Shown here: piece after piece, positions 4,174 to 12,473 of the stretch | Layout: every line of letters begins with the position of its first letter | Numbering within the stretch: position 1 is the stretch's first letter | Source: an uncultured bacterium | GTDB taxonomy: Bacteria; Auribacterota; Tritonobacteria; UBA1439 | DNA: 12,637 bases | Direction of reading: 5' to 3' | NCBI GenBank assembly: GCA_964460305.1 | Contig: CAYWRA010000007.1 | Span: 33,631-46,267 of the forward strand | The notes under the pieces: generated by a model | What the model was told of the DNA's origin: nothing | The model's input: the letters and a program-made list of their open reading frames with translations, nothing else | Databases searched by the model: none | Program-made: the position numbers and the translations under genes

Positions 4174-4210
4174 AATACTGAGAATGACAAATGATAAAAC
4201 ACATAGAAGC

Positions 4211-4255
4211 CAGAATCCGGAATACTGACTCCTGGGCTCTATCTTCCGGATTCTG
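4211..4255. repeat. Perfect 12-bp inverted repeat CAGAATCCGGAA / TTCCGGATTCTG with a 21-nt loop; a third, diverged inverted copy at 4264-4275
   Basis: 4211-4222 cagaatccggaa and 4244-4255 ttccggattctg are exact reverse complements. 4264-4275 attctggattcc is the reverse complement of GGAATCCAGAAT (10/12 match to AGAATCCGGAAT). A small GAATGC-t-GCATTC hairpin lies at 4255-4267. Confidence 0.6.
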
Positions 4256-4296
4256 AATGCTGCATTCTGGATTCCAACCCAATTGCGTTCATCCCC

Positions 4297-4348
4297 CGCC
4301 CCGTCCCGAAGGGATCCCGTTGGGACGGGGCGCGGTTTTCTATTCTTC
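4297..4348 (+). other. Twin-hairpin element copy A with a closing 7-bp stem, followed on the plus strand by a T-rich run, making it terminator-like in the plus orientation only
   Basis: Element is CGCCCCG-TCCCGAAGGGA-TCCCGTTGGGA-CGGGGCG, with outer stem CGCCCCG/CGGGGCG and two 4-bp-stem hairpins with loops GAA and GTT. It is followed after 3 nt by TTTTCTATTCTT (4337-4348). On the minus strand the hairpin is followed by GGGGGAUGAACG, with no U-run. Confidence 0.5.
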
Positions 4349-4389
4349 GTTCCAGGCTAAGGCGCTCTCCAGAAGGGAGACAAGTTAAC

Positions 4390-5739
4390 TCAAAACCGGC
4401 GCCAGAACGCCTTGGCGAGGGTGCGGGACTTCGCGCAGATCTTCTCCTCGTCCACGGTAAGCAGCTCGCCACCGCGCATGAGGATCTTCCCGTTCACGAT
4501 CGTCGTGTCCACTCTCGCCCCGCAGAGGCCGAAGAGGAAATGGCCGAGGAAGGTACCCTCATCAAGCGGGGTTGGCGGAACGTAGTCAAGAACGATCAGA
4601 TCGGCATACGCCCCTTTCGAGAGCGAGCCCACCGGCTTCGCGAAGTGCCGGCGCGCGATCGCCGCATTGTTCCTGAGAAGGAGGCCGCACGACTCGACGA
4701 AGAAGACGCGCGGATCCCTTGCGGCAAGCTTGTGGAGAATGTTCGCAACCCGGACCTCATCGCGCATGTTTGCGGTCATGCCGTCAGTCCCGAGACCGAC
4801 GAGCACGCCTTTAGCGAGCATCTTCATGACCGGCGCCACCCCCACCGCATTGTTCATGTTGGACTGCGGATTGTGCACCACGGGGGTGTCCGTGCTGCGC
4901 AACATATCCATCTCCGCGGGGTTCACGTGCACGCAGTGGATGGCGAGCGATTTCGGGCCGAGGCCTCCCGCCCTGTTCAAACGGCGCACCACGCGCTGGC
5001 AGTACTTCTTCTCATTGACCGCCTGGTCGGCGGCATCCTCCGCCACGTGGACGTGGATGCCGACGCCGAGATCGTTCGCCGCGGCGACGGATTCCACAAG
5101 CGTCTCCTCATTCACCGTAAAGAGGGCGTGAAGTCCGAACATGGCGGAGACCATGTCATTCCCCTTCTTTTGCGCCGCCTGTATTTTTTTGATAAAACGG
5201 ACGTTCTCCGCGATCCCCTCCTTCCCCTTCCCGTAACGGTCGGAGGACCCGAGGCTGAGGCAACCTCGCACACCGGTCTCACGCAGGGCGTCCTCGATCG
5301 GGTCGAGGCAGCCTTCCTGACACCCCTGGCTCTCGTGGTGGTCGATGATGGTGGTGGTTCCGCTCCGTATGCAATCGATGAGCGGAATGAGCGCGCTATA
5401 GTAAAGATCCTCCCTACCCAATGCCTTGTCGAGCGGCCACCAGAGGCGCTCGAGGATCTGGACGAAATTCGCCGGTGGCGGCTGCTTGGGCGATAACCCG
5501 CGGGCGAAGGTCGAATAGAGATGCATGTGAGCGTTGATCATCCCCGGCATAATGACCCTTCCGCCGGCGTCGATGTACGTCGCCCCAACCGCCTTCTTCT
5601 TCAGCGCCGCCGTCTTCCCCACCCCCTCTATGACGTCCCCCTTAATCCATACCGCTCCGTCATGTATGACCTTGTTATTTTCGCCGAGGGTGATGACTAT
5701 TCCGTTGCCGATTAACAGATCCTTTGTTTTAGAAACCAT
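4390..5739 (-). CDS. ssnA: SsnA-family amidohydrolase (metal-dependent hydrolase/deaminase superfamily)
   Basis: 449 aa with a subtype-I amidohydrolase HxH motif (INAHMHLY). Several blocks match what I recall of E. coli SsnA: LWWPLDKALGREDLYYSAL vs LWWRLDRALDEESLYYSGL; IIDHHESQ vs VIDHHASP; HNPQSNMNNAVGV vs HNARSNMNNHVGY; and the C-terminal AFWRRF vs MWRRM. GGAGGGAG SD 5 nt upstream. Confidence 0.9.
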   Translation of the reverse strand: MVSKTKDLLIGNGIVITLGENNKVIHDGAVWIKGDVIEGVGKTAALKKKAVGATYIDAGGRVIMPGMINAHMHLYSTFARGLSPKQPPPANFVQILERLWWPLDKALGREDLYYSALIPLIDCIRSGTTTIIDHHESQGCQEGCLDPIEDALRETGVRGCLSLGSSDRYGKGKEGIAENVRFIKKIQAAQKKGNDMVSAMFGLHALFTVNEETLVESVAAANDLGVGIHVHVAEDAADQAVNEKKYCQRVVRRLNRAGGLGPKSLAIHCVHVNPAEMDMLRSTDTPVVHNPQSNMNNAVGVAPVMKMLAKGVLVGLGTDGMTANMRDEVRVANILHKLAARDPRVFFVESCGLLLRNNAAIARRHFAKPVGSLSKGAYADLIVLDYVPPTPLDEGTFLGHFLFGLCGARVDTTIVNGKILMRGGELLTVDEEKICAKSRTLAKAFWRRF

Positions 5740-5784
5740 AACTCCCTCCGTAATAGTTAATTATGAACTTATCCACAAACATGT

Positions 5785-5818
5785 ACCCTTTCCCAAAGGG
5801 ACCCCGTTGGGGAAGGGT
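5785..5818 (+). repeat. Twin-hairpin element copy B with a closing 6-bp stem
   Basis: Element is ACCCTT-TCCCAAAGGGA-CCCCGTTGGGG-AAGGGT, 32 nt downstream of the ygfK-like stop in the mRNA sense. The architecture and orientation match copy A. Confidence 0.6.
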
Positions 5819-5850
5819 GCTCTACGGTGTGTGCTACAACATTCCCCAGC

Positions 5851-8361
5851 CTACTTCCCTGCCTTCTTCTCTTCGGGCGTGCGCTTCCTCAGCGATATGG
5901 CGTTCACAAAACACTGGAGCGCGCAGAGGCTGCAGCCGACACACTTTCCCGGGTCGGTGATCGGGTGCTTATCCTTATCAAGGGCGATCGCCATGTACGG
6001 ACAGCGGGTGCAGTTGCCGCAGCTCACGCAGAGATCGGGGTTCGCTTCGGAGATCTTTTTCTCAGCCGGCAATGCCATGAAATCCCTGATCGGCTTCGGC
6101 TGCGCTCTCCCGACAAGCTCCGAGACCGACCGTATCCCCCGGTCCTCCATGAGGTGGCTCAATCCGGAGCGGAGATCGTTAATGATTCCGTATCCGTATT
6201 TCTCCACGATGGTGCAGAACTGGACCGTGCCGGTGCCAAGCGCCAGGAAATCGGCCGCGGCCTTGTAATCCATGGGGCCGGCGTTCCCCGAGATGCAGAC
6301 GTCCATGCCGCCCGCGCTGGCAAGGCAGAGGTAGCTGATCGGCGTGACGCCATCGCCGCTCATGCCGACGACAATTCCTTCCTCCCACCCCTTCTTCTCT
6401 CCCTGCTTGAAGGCGAGTGTGGGGAACGTGTTCGCCAGCGTGACGCCCGCTTTCTTATCGGGATACTTTTCGAAGACCTTCTTCACGGCGCGCAGGATTA
6501 CCTTGATATCGGTAACGGCGCTGGTGAGCTTGAACAGCTTGGGGATCTCCGGTGAGCCGGCCTCCATCACCCAGTCGATGATCTTCGCCGTGAGGGCCGC
6601 GTTCTGCGATACGATGTCACCCTCCGCCCCCTCTCCCCCCTGCGGGCAGGAGAGGCTGTACTCGATGAAGAGCGCGCCGGCCTTTTCCAGCTTTCTCGTG
6701 TTGCTCTGCCAGGAGTTTCTATCGGCTGCGTCGTTCCCCGTCACCGTTCCACCCGTGGATGCGCCGGTGAGCCTGTCGGGGTATATCTTGATTAACTTCT
6801 TGATCTCCGCGCAGACCCGGTCGAGCGTGTGCTCGGAAACGTTATCGCAATTGCCCCAGGTCTTCTCGGTGAAGCAGTTCATGTACTCGGCGGGGATGTG
6901 GATCGGGAGGTTGTCGAACGCCGTCTTCAAAATCGCCCCCGGCCATCCCGCATCGTATCCGGCCTTCACCTGTTCGAATCCGTCCGTCGCGGGCGATGCC
7001 GACAGCAGGAATGGGCAGCTTATTTTCCTGCCGAAGAAATCCGTCTCAAGCGATACCGGCTCGAACTCGTAGCCTGGAACGGTGACGACGCTCTTGGTGG
7101 GTTTTTCGACCCTCGGTTTTTTACCGCCCATGAGGGCACAGTCGACCCCCAAAGCTGCGTTCTTGCCCGCCGCCGTCGCCTCGACGACCGTGGACGGGCC
7201 GTTGACCGCGTCGCCGGCATAGAATATCGCGCGATGCTTGACCAGTTTCATCCCCGGCTTTGCGCCGATGGCGACGATCACGCCCTCGATATCCTCACGC
7301 TCCTGTTCGCTCCCGTGCACCTCCTTGAGATCCTTGAGGCTGAATTTCTTCCCCGGCGGAAGCATAACCCTGACAGTAGAGAGACCGGCGATCTTTTTCC
7401 CCTTAGACTTTATCTCCTTCACGCGCGTGCGGCCGCTCACTTCGATGCCGTGGCCGAGCAGCTCCCGCCGCTCCCTCGCGGTAAGCGGCATCTCGCCGAT
7501 ACTCTCGAGAGCGAACATCTCAACCCTCCTCGCCCCCAGCCGCTTCGCCGTCACCGCACAGTCAAGCGCGCTCGCCCCTCCGCCGATCACCGCCACGTTG
7601 CCTTTCAACCGATATCTTTCAGGCTTCTTAAGATAATCGAGGCCGAAGATCGTTTTATCCTCGTTCGGTATTCCCATCCCGACGGGCGCCCAGAGTCCCG
7701 TCGCCACCACCACCGCATCGTATCCCTTGGAAAACAGTTTCTCCGGATCGTCGATCTTCTTACCGGCGCGCAGCTTTATATTCTCCATCGAGAATACGAA
7801 CTTGAGATCCCCTTCCAATACCGCCTTCGGCAGGCGGCACCCCGGTATGCACGAGCACATTCCCCCGGCCTGGCGTTCGCTCTCAAAGATATCCACCGCG
7901 TACCCCTTCTGGGCTAGTACGATAGCCGCGCCAAGCCCCGCAGGGCCGGCGCCGATGACCGCCACCCTCTTCCCGTTGAGGGGGGCGCGCTCGAACTTCG
8001 GCATCACCCCCATCGCCTTCGCCCTGGCGATGACGGTCGCCTGGACCGCCGGGATATTCACGGGGCTGTCGAACCTCTCATGCACGCATGCCTTCATACA
8101 ATGCCAGTCCGGGCAAACCATCCCGCAGATTCCGCCCAAGGGGTTCTGGCTCAGGATCAGCGCGGCTGCCCGCCTGATGTCGGACGGGTTCCCCACCCTG
8201 GCGGCCATGATGAAATCAAACGGTGAGCAATCGCAGGGGCATGCCTTTGTGCATGGCATCTCGGCGCAGTGCTCGCACTTCTCTATTTCACTTTCAAGCT
8301 GGGCCTCGGTGAGCAACACATTGTCCGGATCCGTCTTTAACGATAACTTCGACCTGGTCAT
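5851..8361 (-). CDS. ygfK: YgfK-like iron-sulfur flavoprotein. A single polypeptide fuses a GltD/PreT-like FAD/NAD(P) oxidoreductase (N-terminal Cys cluster region plus two Rossmann folds), a dihydropyrimidine/dihydroorotate-dehydrogenase-like FMN TIM barrel, and a C-terminal 2x[4Fe-4S] ferredoxin.
   Basis: N-terminus has CEHCAEMPCTKACPCDCSP and NPLGGICGMVCPDWHCMKAC, the GltD/DPD domain-II Fe-S motifs. Rossmann 1 is RVAVIGAGPAGLGAAIVLAQKGYAVDIFE and Rossmann 2 is VAVIGGGASALDCAVTAKRLG. Mid-region ISCPFLLSASPATDG...GWPGAILKT...EYSLSCPQ matches the DHOD/DPD (PreA) barrel with an active-site Cys. C-terminus CVSCGNCTRCP...CVGCSLCALQC is a 2x 4Fe-4S ferredoxin. AAGGAG SD 5 nt upstream. Confidence 0.9.
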   Translation of the reverse strand: MTRSKLSLKTDPDNVLLTEAQLESEIEKCEHCAEMPCTKACPCDCSPFDFIMAARVGNPSDIRRAAALILSQNPLGGICGMVCPDWHCMKACVHERFDSPVNIPAVQATVIARAKAMGVMPKFERAPLNGKRVAVIGAGPAGLGAAIVLAQKGYAVDIFESERQAGGMCSCIPGCRLPKAVLEGDLKFVFSMENIKLRAGKKIDDPEKLFSKGYDAVVVATGLWAPVGMGIPNEDKTIFGLDYLKKPERYRLKGNVAVIGGGASALDCAVTAKRLGARRVEMFALESIGEMPLTARERRELLGHGIEVSGRTRVKEIKSKGKKIAGLSTVRVMLPPGKKFSLKDLKEVHGSEQEREDIEGVIVAIGAKPGMKLVKHRAIFYAGDAVNGPSTVVEATAAGKNAALGVDCALMGGKKPRVEKPTKSVVTVPGYEFEPVSLETDFFGRKISCPFLLSASPATDGFEQVKAGYDAGWPGAILKTAFDNLPIHIPAEYMNCFTEKTWGNCDNVSEHTLDRVCAEIKKLIKIYPDRLTGASTGGTVTGNDAADRNSWQSNTRKLEKAGALFIEYSLSCPQGGEGAEGDIVSQNAALTAKIIDWVMEAGSPEIPKLFKLTSAVTDIKVILRAVKKVFEKYPDKKAGVTLANTFPTLAFKQGEKKGWEEGIVVGMSGDGVTPISYLCLASAGGMDVCISGNAGPMDYKAAADFLALGTGTVQFCTIVEKYGYGIINDLRSGLSHLMEDRGIRSVSELVGRAQPKPIRDFMALPAEKKISEANPDLCVSCGNCTRCPYMAIALDKDKHPITDPGKCVGCSLCALQCFVNAISLRKRTPEEKKAGK

Positions 8362-8408
8362 TCTTTCTCCTTTCTTAGTTGAGGTTTCTGAAAACTATAA
8401 ACGAGGAA

Positions 8409-9272
8409 CTAATCATTACGGCGAGCCATAACGCGGGCAAGTCCCCTCATCAGCAGCGCGCCGACCATCTTGTCGCGGTAATCCGCCGTGGACCGAATGT
8501 CCGTGATCGCCGTGGATTCTCCCTCAGCGATGCGCCCGGCCTCCTCGGCGACCTTTTCCGAATATGCCTTCCCCTCCAGATACGCGGCGGCGCGCTGCGC
8601 CATAATCACCTTGGGGGCGACCGCGCCAAGGGCTATCGCGACCTTCGACATGATCCCGCCGCGCACCCTGGCCTTGAACGCGACTCCCACCTTCGAAATG
8701 GAGAGCAGTCGCCTCTGGCCGAGCCTCTCGTAGAAGCTGATCTCATCCGCGCCGGGCTTCGCAAACGATATGACGGTGATGAGCTCGTCCGTCCGGAGAA
8801 CGGATTTCCCCGGCCCCACGGCGAAGTCTCTAATGGGCGCATGACGCTCCCCCGAGCGCGAGCTCAAGGTCAACACCGCGTCGAGGACCATCAGCGCCGG
8901 GACGGAATCGGCGACCGGTGAAGCATTCGCTACGTTGCCGCCGATCGTGCCGAGGTTCTTGATCTGCGGGGATCCGACGATGAACGCCGCCTCAGAGAGA
9001 GCGGCGGCGCATTCCCTTATGATCGGGGAGCGTTCGATCTCTCTGTGCGTGGCGAGGGGGCCTATCTTGATCAAACCGTTCTCTTCACGAATGTATCTCA
9101 GCCCGTTAAGGCGATTTAGATCGAGCAGGGCGCGGGGCTCCTTTTTTCCTTCGAGGACCTGGATAATGACATCCGTTCCCCCAGAGATCACCTTCACACC
9201 CTCCCCCTCGTGGGAGAGGATGTCGAGTGCCGCCGGCAAAGACTCCGGCGAATAAGTCCTAATGTCCCTCAT
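8409..9272 (-). CDS. FAD-binding subunit of a molybdopterin-dependent hydroxylase (CoxM/XdhB/YgfM family)
   Basis: 287 aa with VISGGTDVI and LGTIGGNVANASP motifs of the FAD_binding_5 domain. The start overlaps the upstream [2Fe-2S] gene stop by 4 nt (ATGA at 9269-9272). Confidence 0.9.
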   Translation of the reverse strand: MRDIRTYSPESLPAALDILSHEGEGVKVISGGTDVIIQVLEGKKEPRALLDLNRLNGLRYIREENGLIKIGPLATHREIERSPIIRECAAALSEAAFIVGSPQIKNLGTIGGNVANASPVADSVPALMVLDAVLTLSSRSGERHAPIRDFAVGPGKSVLRTDELITVISFAKPGADEISFYERLGQRRLLSISKVGVAFKARVRGGIMSKVAIALGAVAPKVIMAQRAAAYLEGKAYSEKVAEEAGRIAEGESTAITDIRSTADYRDKMVGALLMRGLARVMARRND

Positions 9273-9736
9273 GACGACAGCCTCTTGGCGGCAAGCTCTA
9301 CCGCCTCAAAAATCTTCACGTAGCCCGTGCAGCGGCATAAATTCCCGGAAAGCCCCTCTTTGATCTCCTCGATCGTGGGGCGAGCGTTATCTTCCAGGAG
9401 GGCCCTCGCCGAAATAAGGAAGCCGGGGATACAGTAGCCGCACTGGACGGCGCCTGTCTCCACAAACGCGTCCTGAAGCGCCTTGCCGATCCGGTCGGCG
9501 GCCAACCCCTCCACCGTGAGCACGTTCGCCCCATCTAGCCTGGCCGCAATCACCAGGCACGACGTGACCGCCTTGCCGTCCATAATAACGGTGCACGCCC
9601 CGCACTCCCCCTTACCGCACCCCTCCTTCGTACCAGTAAGTCCGAGGTCCTCACGGAGGACGTCGAGGAGCGTCCGGGTCGGAGAGGTCTCCAACTCGAC
9701 GCTTCTACCGTTGACGGCGAATCGCACTTTGATCAT
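9269..9736 (-). CDS. [2Fe-2S] iron-sulfur subunit of a molybdopterin-dependent hydroxylase (CoxS/XdhC-like)
   Basis: 155 aa. The N-terminus MIKVRFAVNGRSVELETSPTRTLLDVLRED is typical. Plant-type ferredoxin motif CGKGECGACTV; second cluster motif CGYCIPG...CRCTGY. Confidence 0.9.
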   Translation of the reverse strand: MIKVRFAVNGRSVELETSPTRTLLDVLREDLGLTGTKEGCGKGECGACTVIMDGKAVTSCLVIAARLDGANVLTVEGLAADRIGKALQDAFVETGAVQCGYCIPGFLISARALLEDNARPTIEEIKEGLSGNLCRCTGYVKIFEAVELAAKRLSS

Positions 9737-9760
9737 CTAACACTCTATCAATCCGGTTTT

Positions 9761-9902
9761 ACAAAGAGTAAAAGAGAGAAGAGAGGGATACGAAACAAAC
9801 GTCTCCCCCCTCCTTAACCCTCCCCCTCAGAGGGGGGGATGGGTGGGGGTGAGCACCATCCAATAACTCTTCTCTCGCTTCTTGTTCCCTTTTACTCTTT
9901 GT
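9761..9902. promoter_or_regulatory. Imperfect palindrome of about 140 bp in the 290-bp spacer between the Mo-subunit and Fe-S-subunit genes
   Basis: Outer arms ACAAAGAGTAAAAG (9761-9774) and CTTTTACTCTTTGT (9889-9902) are exact reverse complements. Inner GAGAGAAGAGAG (left) and CTCTTCTCTC (right) are partly matching. The centre is the perfect palindrome CCCCCTCaGAGGGGG (9822-9836), flanked by a C-rich left side (TCTCCCCCCTCC) and a G-rich right side (GGGGGGGATGGGTGGGGG). Confidence 0.5.
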
Positions 9903-9920
9903 GAGAACAAATTAACTACA

Positions 9921-9948
9921 ATCCGCGTTTGTCCGCGTGAATCCGCGG
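9921..9948. promoter_or_regulatory. Three direct TCCGCG repeats phased exactly 10 bp apart (ATCCGCG / GTCCGCG / ATCCGCGG)
   Basis: TCCGCG at 9922-9927, 9932-9937 and 9942-9947; read as aATCCGCGttt gTCCGCGtga aTCCGCGGca. Helical-face phasing is typical of arrayed transcription-factor sites. Confidence 0.45.
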
Positions 9949-9985
9949 CAAACAACTCTTTCTCTGTTAATTTCTCTGTGCTCTC

Positions 9986-10008
9986 TCCCGAAGGGACCCC
10001 CTCGGGGT
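9986..10008 (+). repeat. Twin-hairpin element copy C with no obvious closing stem
   Basis: TCCCGAAGGGA-CCCCCTCGGGG-T, 17 nt downstream of the Mo-subunit stop in the mRNA sense. In the mRNA it reads GGGGUCCCUUCGGGA, a C(UUCG)G tetraloop hairpin. Confidence 0.55.
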
Positions 10009-10026
10009 GTGTCTCCGTGGGGAAAA

Positions 10027-12303: not shown

Positions 12304-12368
12304 GATAAATCTTCTTGCGCACTATCCGTAGGGGCGCGATTCATCACGTCCATCCTTTACCACCGCAG

Positions 12369-12386
12369 GCCGGATAAATCCGGCCC
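12369..12386. promoter_or_regulatory. Perfect palindrome GGCCGGATAAATCCGGCC in the leader/promoter region of the hydroxylase operon
   Basis: 8-bp arms GGCCGGAT / ATCCGGCC separated by AA, located 66-83 bp upstream of the Mo-subunit ATG. Confidence 0.4.
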
Positions 12387-12416
12387 CTACAAAATATGTT
12401 ATCCCCCGCTTTCCCG

Positions 12417-12473
12417 AGTGATTCAGGGTCAAGTGATTCAGGGTCGATTCAGTCCCAAGTGATTCAGGGTCAG
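12417..12473. repeat. Tandem 15-bp direct repeats AGTGATTCAGGGTCA (three full copies plus one partial GATTCAGTCCCA) upstream of the hydroxylase operon
   Basis: Full copies at 12417-12431, 12432-12445 and 12458-12473, with a degenerate copy at 12446-12457. The GATTCAG core starts at 12420, 12435, 12446 and 12461. Confidence 0.6.

Follow-up and report, generated by a model that had tools for sequence, protein, structure and literature searches.

Three copies of a 22-nt palindromic element, probably REP-like insertion modules, in the spacers of a bacterial molybdenum hydroxylase gene cluster

The repetitive extragenic palindromes (REPs) of E. coli are strain-variable, context-dependent elements of 3' untranslated regions (3'UTRs) that both limit readthrough and shield the transcript upstream of them (bioRxiv 10.64898/2026.03.23.713779). 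The NTS/dRS3/SRM repeats are hairpins that are conserved across phyla and are cut as single-stranded DNA by small GIY-YIG nucleases of the Ssn type, for whose cleavage the identity of the loop is reportedly dispensable; they serve as a precedent for cross-phylum hairpin repeats linked to a single-stranded-DNA nuclease (PMC11893778). GNA triloops closed by a C:G pair, such as d(GCGAAGC), form extraordinarily stable, nuclease-resistant DNA mini-hairpins (PMC13037366). The present study concerns a 12,637-nt stretch of DNA from an uncultured bacterium (GTDB lineage Auribacterota; Tritonobacteria; UBA1439; contig CAYWRA010000007.1 of assembly GCA_964460305.1, positions 33,631 to 46,267), which is called the window throughout. 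A 22-nt, nearly palindromic twin-hairpin element occurs three times in this window, in the spacers of a gene cluster for a selenium-dependent molybdenum hydroxylase. On balance, and with moderate confidence, the three copies were judged to be a REP-like, non-coding, miniature palindromic insertion module and not a conserved regulator.

A search of the window with the consensus pattern TCCCRAAGGGAYCCCSTYGGGR gave exactly three matches on the + strand, plus the near-palindromic reverse reading of copy A. All three sites are located in non-coding spacers. Each element consists of two abutting 11-nt mini-hairpins, each of which has a stem of 4 bp (Y-CCC/GGG-R) and a loop of 3 nt. The copies, as read from the sequence, and the stems that enclose two of them are listed here.

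4304-4325, copy A, TCCCGAAGGGATCCCGTTGGGA; TCCC-GAA-GGGA / TCCC-GTT-GGGA on the + strand
5791-5812, copy B, TCCCAAAGGGACCCCGTTGGGG; TCCC-AAA-GGGA / CCCC-GTT-GGGG on the + strand
9986-10007, copy C, TCCCGAAGGGACCCCCTCGGGG; TCCC-GAA-GGGA / CCCC-CTC-GGGG on the + strand
4297-4303/4326-4332, outer stem of copy A, CGCCCCG/CGGGGCG
4297-4332, composite hairpin A (the outer stem and the enclosed copy A), an inverted repeat with 21-nt arms that are 86% complementary
5785-5790/5813-5818, outer stem of copy B, ACCCTT/AAGGGT

A preliminary description of this DNA, made from the sequence alone, had reported the three copies and the outer stems of A and B. Both observations were reproduced, except that the 23rd base assigned to copy B (A5813) belongs to its outer stem. 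Copy C has no outer stem and is embedded in a block of CACGGAG/CACAGAG heptamers. In the mRNA sense, copy A reads UCCC-AAC-GGGA and then UCCC-UUC-GGGA.

The number of matches expected from dinucleotide shuffles of the window was 0.01, and none of 200 shuffles equaled the observed count of three. The window contains six YCCC-N3-GGGR mini-hairpins, all of which are found within the three abutting pairs; neither solo mini-hairpins nor separated pairs resembling terminal inverted repeats were detected in it. Four tandem pairs of 4-bp/3-nt hairpins were counted where 0.27 would be expected; the element accounts for three of them. A larger transposon with TCCCGAAGGGA ends was considered and rejected, given the lack of solo or separated hairpins in the window and of any recurrent spacing other than 11 nt at other loci. 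The loops of the second hairpins are GTT in copies A and B and CTC in copy C (AAC/AAC/GAG on the opposite strand). Because GTT is scarce elsewhere (5 of 118 sites, among the matches listed in the scan of other genomes described below), its presence in both A and B gives these two copies a family resemblance.

An independent contig (L001) that is 99.7% identical to the window over 2,218 nt carries copies A and B, and copy C is present in six assemblies of other samples from the same project, identical apart from one variant; an assembly artefact can therefore be discounted. Seven of the 2,218 positions differ between L001 and the window, and five of the seven are located in the 154 nt of the copy A spacer that L001 covers. 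Copy A itself has two substitutions in L001, and one of the differences in its spacer is an uncompensated change in the outer stem. A G>T variant of copy C in one of the six assemblies (L174) also breaks a pair without compensation. Judged from these variants, the copies appear to be weakly constrained in the population.

Orthologous loci were compared using the SsnA gene as the anchor. The nearest loci encoded SsnA proteins that were 90% (L126), 87% (L127 and L128), 86% (L122-124), and 78% (L125) identical to that of the window. A further 36 related metagenome loci (361 kb) brought the total to about 400 kb, with SsnA identities of 23-90%. Neither the motif nor a related tandem mini-hairpin was found in L122-L128 or in the 361 kb of further loci. 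Upstream of ssnA, the relatives carry a hairpin of the form GTAG-N8-CTTAAG-N8-CTAC, followed by TGTGGATAA; its stem varies yet stays complementary (GTAGAGCACC/GGTGCTCTAC or GTAGCCGACA/TGTCGGCTAC). This module is the host of copy B. In an alignment with L127, L122, and L128 that was made by eye, the site is empty in L127 and L122 (GTAGAGCACCCTT^AAGGGTGCTCT; L127 reads GTAGAGCACCCTTAAGGGTGCTCT), whereas in the window it is filled (GTAGAGCACCCTT, then the insert CCCCAACGGGGTCCCTTTGGGA, then AAGGGTACATGTTTGTGGATAA). The insert is exactly the 22-mer, positioned at the CTT^AAG tip, and the 3' arm of the host has decayed. The empty module of the relatives thus identifies the ACCCTT/AAGGGT "closing stem" of copy B as the inner part of an older hairpin. 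Two features of this host are present in the window.

5785-5825, - strand, remnant of the GTAG hairpin that hosts copy B (mRNA sense: GTAGAGCACCCTT, the 22-mer, AAGGGT)
5769-5777, + strand, TTATCCACA (mRNA sense TGTGGATAA), a conserved tail belonging to the GTAG module that hosts copy B; the only perfect match in the window

The sites of the other two copies also differ from those of the relatives. The closest relative, L126, has a 49-nt spacer upstream of ssnA that contains neither the GTAG module nor the twin element, and the part of the spacer downstream of ssnA in which copy A lies is missing from it. L122 reads cacggaggcacggaggacacggagaaaa at the position of copy C, with no twin. In L125, a different, oppositely oriented gene follows ssnA. 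The absence from relatives, the insertion-type difference, and the weak constraint together indicate that the element is a recent, lineage-restricted, dispersed palindromic repeat and not a conserved cis-regulator.

The host module has some features of its own. TGTGGATAA follows the hairpin in L122, L127, L128, L134, and L139. We take TTATCCACA to be identical to the DnaA-box consensus, of which TGTGGATAA is the exact complement. Relatives carry a GTAG-N8-CTTAAG-N8-CTAC hairpin with a covarying stem upstream of both ssnA and the M48 gene, and TGTGGATAA occurs 2-4 nt later (L122 9934-9980 and 11368-11410; L127 2071-2110; L128 2742-2790). L140 and L149 contain an analogous GGCACAC-TTAC-GTGTGCC hairpin plus TGTGGGTAA. 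The GTAG hairpin with TGTGGATAA could be a mobile REP-like module with a DnaA box, or it could be a conserved regulatory site.

Folding was carried out using nearest-neighbour parameters. For copies A and B, the minimum-energy fold was one long imperfect hairpin, whether RNA or DNA was modeled and on either strand; the two loops pair together in this fold, with GAUC/GACC at the tip. The three-way-junction fold of the preliminary description was not supported: the twin or three-way-junction fold was worse by 4-10 kcal/mol for every window copy case on both strands (for copy A, -18.6/-20.0 vs. -26.5/-30.0 kcal/mol for the long hairpin). The description had also seen a UNCG-type tetraloop in the mRNA. 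As RNA, the single 11-nt hairpins (-1.7 to -4.5 kcal/mol each) have a triloop instead; the 4-bp register gives UUC/UUU triloops at about -3 kcal/mol each, and copy B has UUUG. Hairpin 1 has a C-GAA-G core in copies A and C and an AAA loop in copy B. By analogy with the GNA triloops, standard folding parameters may miss some extra stability of this core in A and C.

These energies bear on the idea that the copies constitute a dedicated operon-internal RNA element, i.e. that mRNA hairpins act as processing or 3'-end stability sites that set the levels of the Mo (molybdenum) subunit, YgfK, and SsnA. Composite hairpin A is indeed very stable (-33.6/-33.8 kcal/mol in a 61-nt context, z about -3.9, on both strands; the mRNA-sense value is -33.6), and E. 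coli REPs act in this way (bioRxiv 10.64898/2026.03.23.713779). On the mRNA strand, however, the stability of B and C does not exceed that of shuffles (z of -0.75 and -1.4, respectively), and copy B folds better on the antisense strand because of G-U pairs (-26.9 kcal/mol, z -3.1, vs. -18.5 on the mRNA strand). The copies all occur shortly past stop codons and in one orientation, as had been reported; the distances, measured from the outer stem where present, are 57 nt (SsnA), 32 nt (YgfK-like), and 18 nt (Mo subunit). Position carries little weight, since every spacer in a co-directional row of genes follows a stop. Nor does orientation, since it is mixed in other genomes (13 sites in the same direction as the upstream gene vs. 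9 in the opposite, among the matches listed). The element is absent from every orthologous operon that was examined, including those with 86-90% SsnA identity; copy B is a simple insertion, and population variants break pairs in A and C without compensation. Contrary to the preliminary description, an operon-internal regulatory RNA is therefore unlikely.

Intrinsic (Rho-independent) terminators or attenuators between the cistrons would also form hairpins at such places. Composite hairpin A is followed by TTTTCTATTCTT on the + strand, which gives the canonical terminator shape, and convergent spacers are favored over divergent ones elsewhere (21 vs. 6, among the matches listed). But the T-rich tract in question (4336-4348) occurs only on the + strand, antisense to every gene, and none of the three copies is followed by a U-tract on the mRNA (-) strand; the transcribed strand thus lacks the defining feature of an intrinsic terminator. 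A terminator and promoter scan of the window returned nothing at the three sites. This explanation was thus considered very unlikely. A permissive scan of the window with Rfam 15 gave no match at the three sites (E<=1), and a scan at gathering thresholds of 20 motif-bearing loci from other genomes found no family that overlaps the motif.

When one genome per species was scanned with the pattern TCCCRAAGGGAYCCCNNNGGGR, at least 115 loci were obtained. The element is thus not genome-specific, contrary to what had first been supposed; the same 22-nt skeleton occurs in many phyla. The phyla named here are a sample, and the counts in this paragraph and the next refer to the matches listed. The loci span Bacteroidota, Ignavibacteriota, Calditrichota, many lineages of the candidate phyla radiation, Anaerolineae, members of the Planctomycetes-Verrucomicrobia-Chlamydiae (PVC) group, and others; several genomes have more than one matching locus, and identical 22-mers are found in unrelated flanks. 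The loops of the second hairpins elsewhere are mostly TNY (TTC, TTT, TGC, TAT, and similar), and 40 of the 118 sites match on both strands, i.e. their second loop is TTY. The pair at positions 12-22 is TA at 79 sites, CG at 23, TG at 14, and CA at 2. In a second search, the skeleton T..CRAAG..AT..CTTYG..A was used, which fixes loop and closing positions only and does not presuppose pairing. Both stems were fully complementary at 49 of 49 sites, nine of which had other stems (TCGC/GCGA, TGCC/GGCA, TGGC/GCCA, TCAC/GTGA, and TTCC/GGAA); further stem variants were observed as well. At those sites one stem is unlike the other, which precludes the long hairpin. As a cross-phylum family, then, the element is supported as a true pair of hairpins whose stems covary independently. 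The two adjacent hairpins of the preliminary description are in this respect upheld by the other genomes, although the thermodynamics of the window copies prefers the long hairpin.

Locations in other genomes were tallied by hand for overlap with open reading frames (ORFs), for convergent or divergent spacers, and for orientation. About 25% of the sites fall within crudely called ORFs of 100 aa or more, of which some are short and probably spurious. Orientation is itself barely defined, since both strands read as a purine-rich loop followed by a T-rich loop. Two asymmetries were observed nonetheless. TG exceeds CA at positions 12-22, the pair that closes hairpin 2 (14 vs. 2, on the strand with the RAA first loop; L002-L116), which hints at folding on the RAA-loop strand, with ascertainment effects possible; and at many cross-phylum sites CA(A/G)G follows on one side only, a hint of a strand-specific feature. 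There was no sign of a phage origin, which was rejected; viral contigs gave only four matches.

Persistence of loops and closing pairs with differing stems might arise without descent. If C-GAA-G/C-TTC-G mini-hairpins are unusually stable, each copy could have arisen locally by template switching or slippage at CCC...GGG tips, making the motif a convergent structural attractor with no shared ancestry or mobilizing enzyme. GNA triloops with C:G closure are extraordinarily stable (PMC13037366), the apices that host A and B are palindromes of the CCC(C)/GGG(G) type in their own right, and no mobilizing gene was found near the motif at 115 loci. Yet copy C has no CCC/GGG host, the unusual GTT loop is common to A and B, and identical 22-mers recur in unrelated flanks. 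Moreover, stability could account for hairpin 1 of A and C only, because the loop of B is AAA and the mRNA-strand loops AAC and GAG are not GNA. We regard local convergence as quite unlikely. Double-stranded operators were also considered, in which inverted half-sites CRAAG-N6-CTTYG, one helical turn apart, would bind a dimeric regulator of the purine/selenium hydroxylase genes. The palindromic symmetry would suit such sites, and each copy is also upstream of the next gene. Duplex binding, however, does not account for complementarity within half-sites or for compensatory stem changes elsewhere. The sites are absent from orthologous operons, their distances to the next start codon vary widely (142, 51, and 249 nt), and the neighboring genes are unrelated in other genomes. 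Operators were accordingly thought scarcely credible.

The insertion module favored here is nested in other small repeats, in the window and beyond it. Among the matches listed, an outer stem of 5 bp or more within 6 nt was counted at 19% of the sites, compared to 4.7% in controls with re-paired flanks. Among the hosts that could be recognized elsewhere are hairpins of the forms GTCATTCCCG^...CGGGAATCC and GTAGGGGCGTTCAATT^GAACGCCCCTAC, as well as tandem heptamers that flank the twin on either side. Nesting was seen in hairpins of the forms GTCATTC...GAATC (NTS/SRM-like) and GTAGGGGCG...CGCCCCTAC, and the twin is often located in the loop of an NTS/SRM-like or GTAG hairpin. The GTCATTCCCG^...CGGGAATCC type of host is an NTS/dRS3/SRM repeat. 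In Chitinophagaceae and other Bacteroidota (L013 3540-4060, L032 5300-5600, and L024/L048), twins with various stems were observed in the loops of GTCATTC...GAATC hairpins. The host units of Chitinophagaceae are inside elements of ~190 nt that resemble miniature inverted-repeat transposable elements (MITEs), with terminal inverted repeats and the bounds CTAGAAGCCATCTCAAAAA / TTTTTGAGATGGCTTCTAG.

Neighboring genes, represented by the 1,772 ORFs that lie no more than 2.5 kb from the motif at the 115 loci, were compared using all-against-all BLAST. Genes for four-helix-bundle proteins resembling 23S intervening-sequence (IVS) proteins were present at 8 of the 115 loci and GIY-YIG genes at 3 (35-634 nt away); these are weak hints and suggestive only. 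In one four-helix-bundle ORF (L073 637-1062), the twin and its flanks apparently form an in-frame insertion of ~30 codons (...YYPKGIPKGKE...). A literature search using sequence strings returned only plasmid and primer sequences, and the paper on Ssn and NTS was reached via the sequence of a host hairpin, not that of the twin.

Comparison with the described classes places the element near REPs and their mosaic form, the bacterial interspersed mosaic elements (BIMEs). Like these, the twin is a short GC-rich imperfect palindrome that is extragenic and located at gene 3' ends or between cistrons, and its presence varies between close relatives. It also sits in mosaics of small repeats. The size and location expected of a REP (an imperfect GC-rich palindrome of about 20-40 nt outside genes) are found in all three copies, which are confined to spacers. 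Presence/absence polymorphism is found as well, with a filled and an empty site for B and with A and C absent in relatives. The preliminary description had therefore chosen the right category in calling this a non-coding, repeated, REP-like palindromic element. A terminator or stabilizer effect on mRNA is plausible, by analogy, for the twin as for REPs. Unlike a REP, which is a single hairpin of 30-40 nt, the unit is 22 nt long and is made up of two 11-nt mini-hairpins, and its design recurs across phyla, whereas a REP consensus is usually lineage-specific.

The NTS/SRM repeats share with the twin the distribution of a hairpin repeat across phyla, and in Bacteroidota and Ignavibacteriota the twin sits inside loops of GTCATTC...GAATC hairpins. 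The twin, however, has no oriented GTC head. No single-domain GIY-YIG gene of the ssn type (cd10448) is found among the eight genes of the window; the Ssn nucleases and the SsnA aminohydrolase of the window are unrelated proteins, and the similarity of their names is a coincidence. The resemblance to GNA mini-hairpins consists of the C-GAA-G core that hairpin 1 has in A, in C, and at most sites elsewhere, and of the TNY second loops elsewhere, which give a purine-N-A (RNA-type) loop on the opposite strand. But the definition of GNA mini-hairpins comes from physical chemistry in vitro and from a few sites at replication origins and is not that of a repeat dispersed through genomes, and the AAA loop of copy B and the second loops in the window (GTT, GTT, and CTC) are neither GNA nor its complement. 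With MITEs and mosaic elements (Correia/NEMIS, NIMEs) the twin has in common that it is non-autonomous and intergenic, shows insertion polymorphism, and nests. It is nevertheless far below MITE size, with two 11-nt arms and nothing between them; its 11-nt halves are inverted repeats, but no duplication surrounds the copy B insertion.

Several observations weigh against reading the copies as a REP-like insertion module. The twin has no conserved GTAG head, the feature recognized by the REP-associated tyrosine transposases (RAYTs): the copies begin with TCCC, and GTAG is present only in the host of copy B. The SRM regular expression HGTCWYN(0-2)YYVSBRHN(0-5)WNVSBRGN(0-2)RNCYNB has no match on either strand of the window, even with a 6-45-nt loop allowed at the copies, which means that the twin is no member of NTS/SRM. 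Because the GTAG head and the SRM match are the defining features of these classes, the element was filed under neither. No target-site duplication was found at the copy B junction CCCTT[22 nt]AAGGG. The eight genes of the window include no transposase or nuclease gene, and specifically no RAYT (an IS200/IS605-like Y1 transposase); no dominant or clearly enriched gene family, transposases included, was found near the motif at the 115 loci. The number of copies per genome, tens to hundreds, is a key property of REPs, and here the figures are 3 in the 12.6-kb window vs. 0 in ~400 kb from relatives. The raw count in other genomes is not far above the ~35 that we estimate under uniform base composition; non-randomness elsewhere rests on the statistics of loops, pairing, and context, not on the count. 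The copies in the window need not be homologous to those in other phyla, as a structure-driven motif of 22 nt could converge. Finally, any effect at the RNA level is pure analogy.

With these points taken into account, a REP-like insertion module still appears to be the best explanation of the three copies. The module was added to three spacers in the lineage of the window only, and each time it came to be nested in a further small repeat: the tip of a CG-rich hairpin carries copy A, the CTT^AAG tip of the conserved GTAG hairpin carries copy B, and copy C interrupts the CACGGAG heptamers. When the nucleic acid becomes single-stranded (DNA in replication or uptake, or the operon mRNA), the hairpin or hairpins would form, and copy A with its host stem may give a very stable cap. 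By analogy with the REPs of E. coli, such a cap could slow 3'-to-5' decay of the mRNA and attenuate readthrough. This effect is most plausible for copy A, as it is located at the end of the ssnA unit and no other copy has sufficient stability on the mRNA strand; for the element in general, an influence on readthrough or mRNA stability is conceivable on the same analogy. Copies B and C are probably near-neutral passengers. The likeliest candidate means of spread are an enzyme that acts on single-stranded-DNA hairpins, as in the RAYT/REP and Ssn/NTS pairings, or template switching at hairpin tips.

For the gene cluster, this would mean that the hairpins are recent passengers outside the conserved regulation of the selenium-dependent molybdenum hydroxylase genes, and labels such as riboswitch-like or processing element should be avoided in the annotation of all three. 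More broadly, the intergenic "mosaic" DNA of very distant phyla repeatedly contains a two-hairpin design in which loops and closing pairs are fixed and the stems covary freely. This design has no Rfam family or obvious partner gene, and it tends toward repeats that are substrates of single-stranded-DNA enzymes. A wider proposal is offered tentatively, as a possibility about which we are doubtful: the twin (T-SSC-RAA-GSS-A / T-SSC-TTY-GSS-A) may be a distinct, undescribed, cross-phylum module of single-stranded nucleic acid with its own recognition or mobilizing activity, preferentially added to the tips of unrelated hairpin repeats (GTAG/REP-like and NTS/SRM-like) and into blocks of tandem heptamers, and the window would then represent a recent burst in a PVC-group bacterium. 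If an activity that recognizes or copies the element exists, it would be a third pairing beside RAYT/REP and Ssn/NTS, and it could explain how short structured modules colonize bacterial spacers and tune the behavior of 3'UTRs.

All long ORFs of the window are on the - strand. They were assigned using Pfam and are given in the order of transcription.

12303-10027, - strand, xanthine-dehydrogenase-type Mo subunit
9736-9269, - strand, 2Fe-2S subunit
9272-8409, - strand, FAD subunit
8361-5851, - strand, YgfK-like Fe-S flavoprotein
5739-4390, - strand, SsnA-type amidohydrolase
4161-2848, - strand, M48 peptidase
2851-2387, - strand, DMT_6 membrane protein
2260-1397, - strand, Band-7 protein

The source names of SsnA homologues include, e.g., "putative selenium metabolism protein SsnA", and the nearest named homologues are from PVC-group metagenome-assembled genomes (Aureabacteria, Kiritimatiellae, and Verrucomicrobia). 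The M48 and DMT_6 genes are absent from L126 (1920-2267), in which the Band-7 gene comes directly after ssnA; the spacer there is a fusion of the ssnA-to-M48 and DMT-to-Band7 spacers of the window.

Other small repeats were observed in the same spacers. Directly 5' of the Mo-subunit gene (about 12310-12395, - strand) is a hairpin pair, tGTAGGGGCCGGATTTATCCGGCC...GGACGTGATGAATCGCGCCCCTAC, which is a larger, GTAG-headed double-hairpin repeat; it is kept in the ThiS-to-Mo spacer of L122 and repeated elsewhere in that locus (M48-to-Band7 spacer). The upstream region of the operon has a 26-nt tandem repeat, GATTCAGGGTCAAGTGATTCAGGGTC x2, at 12420-12471 (- strand units CCCTGAATCAC). The 290-nt spacer between the Mo and 2Fe-2S genes (9737-10026) is a mosaic of small modules, namely the CACGGAG/CACAGAG heptamers, GCCGCGGATTCACGCGGACAAACGCGGATT, and 28-nt inverted arms (9750-9777 / 9886-9913) around CCCCCCTCTGAGGGGGAGGG. 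Its predicted RNA fold is -114 kcal/mol (z -4.5), and the corresponding spacer of L125 is only 70 nt long. The part of the ssnA-to-M48 spacer downstream of copy A (4200-4290) is packed with inverted GAATCCGG/CCGGATTC and GAATCCAG words, and most of this segment is absent from L126.

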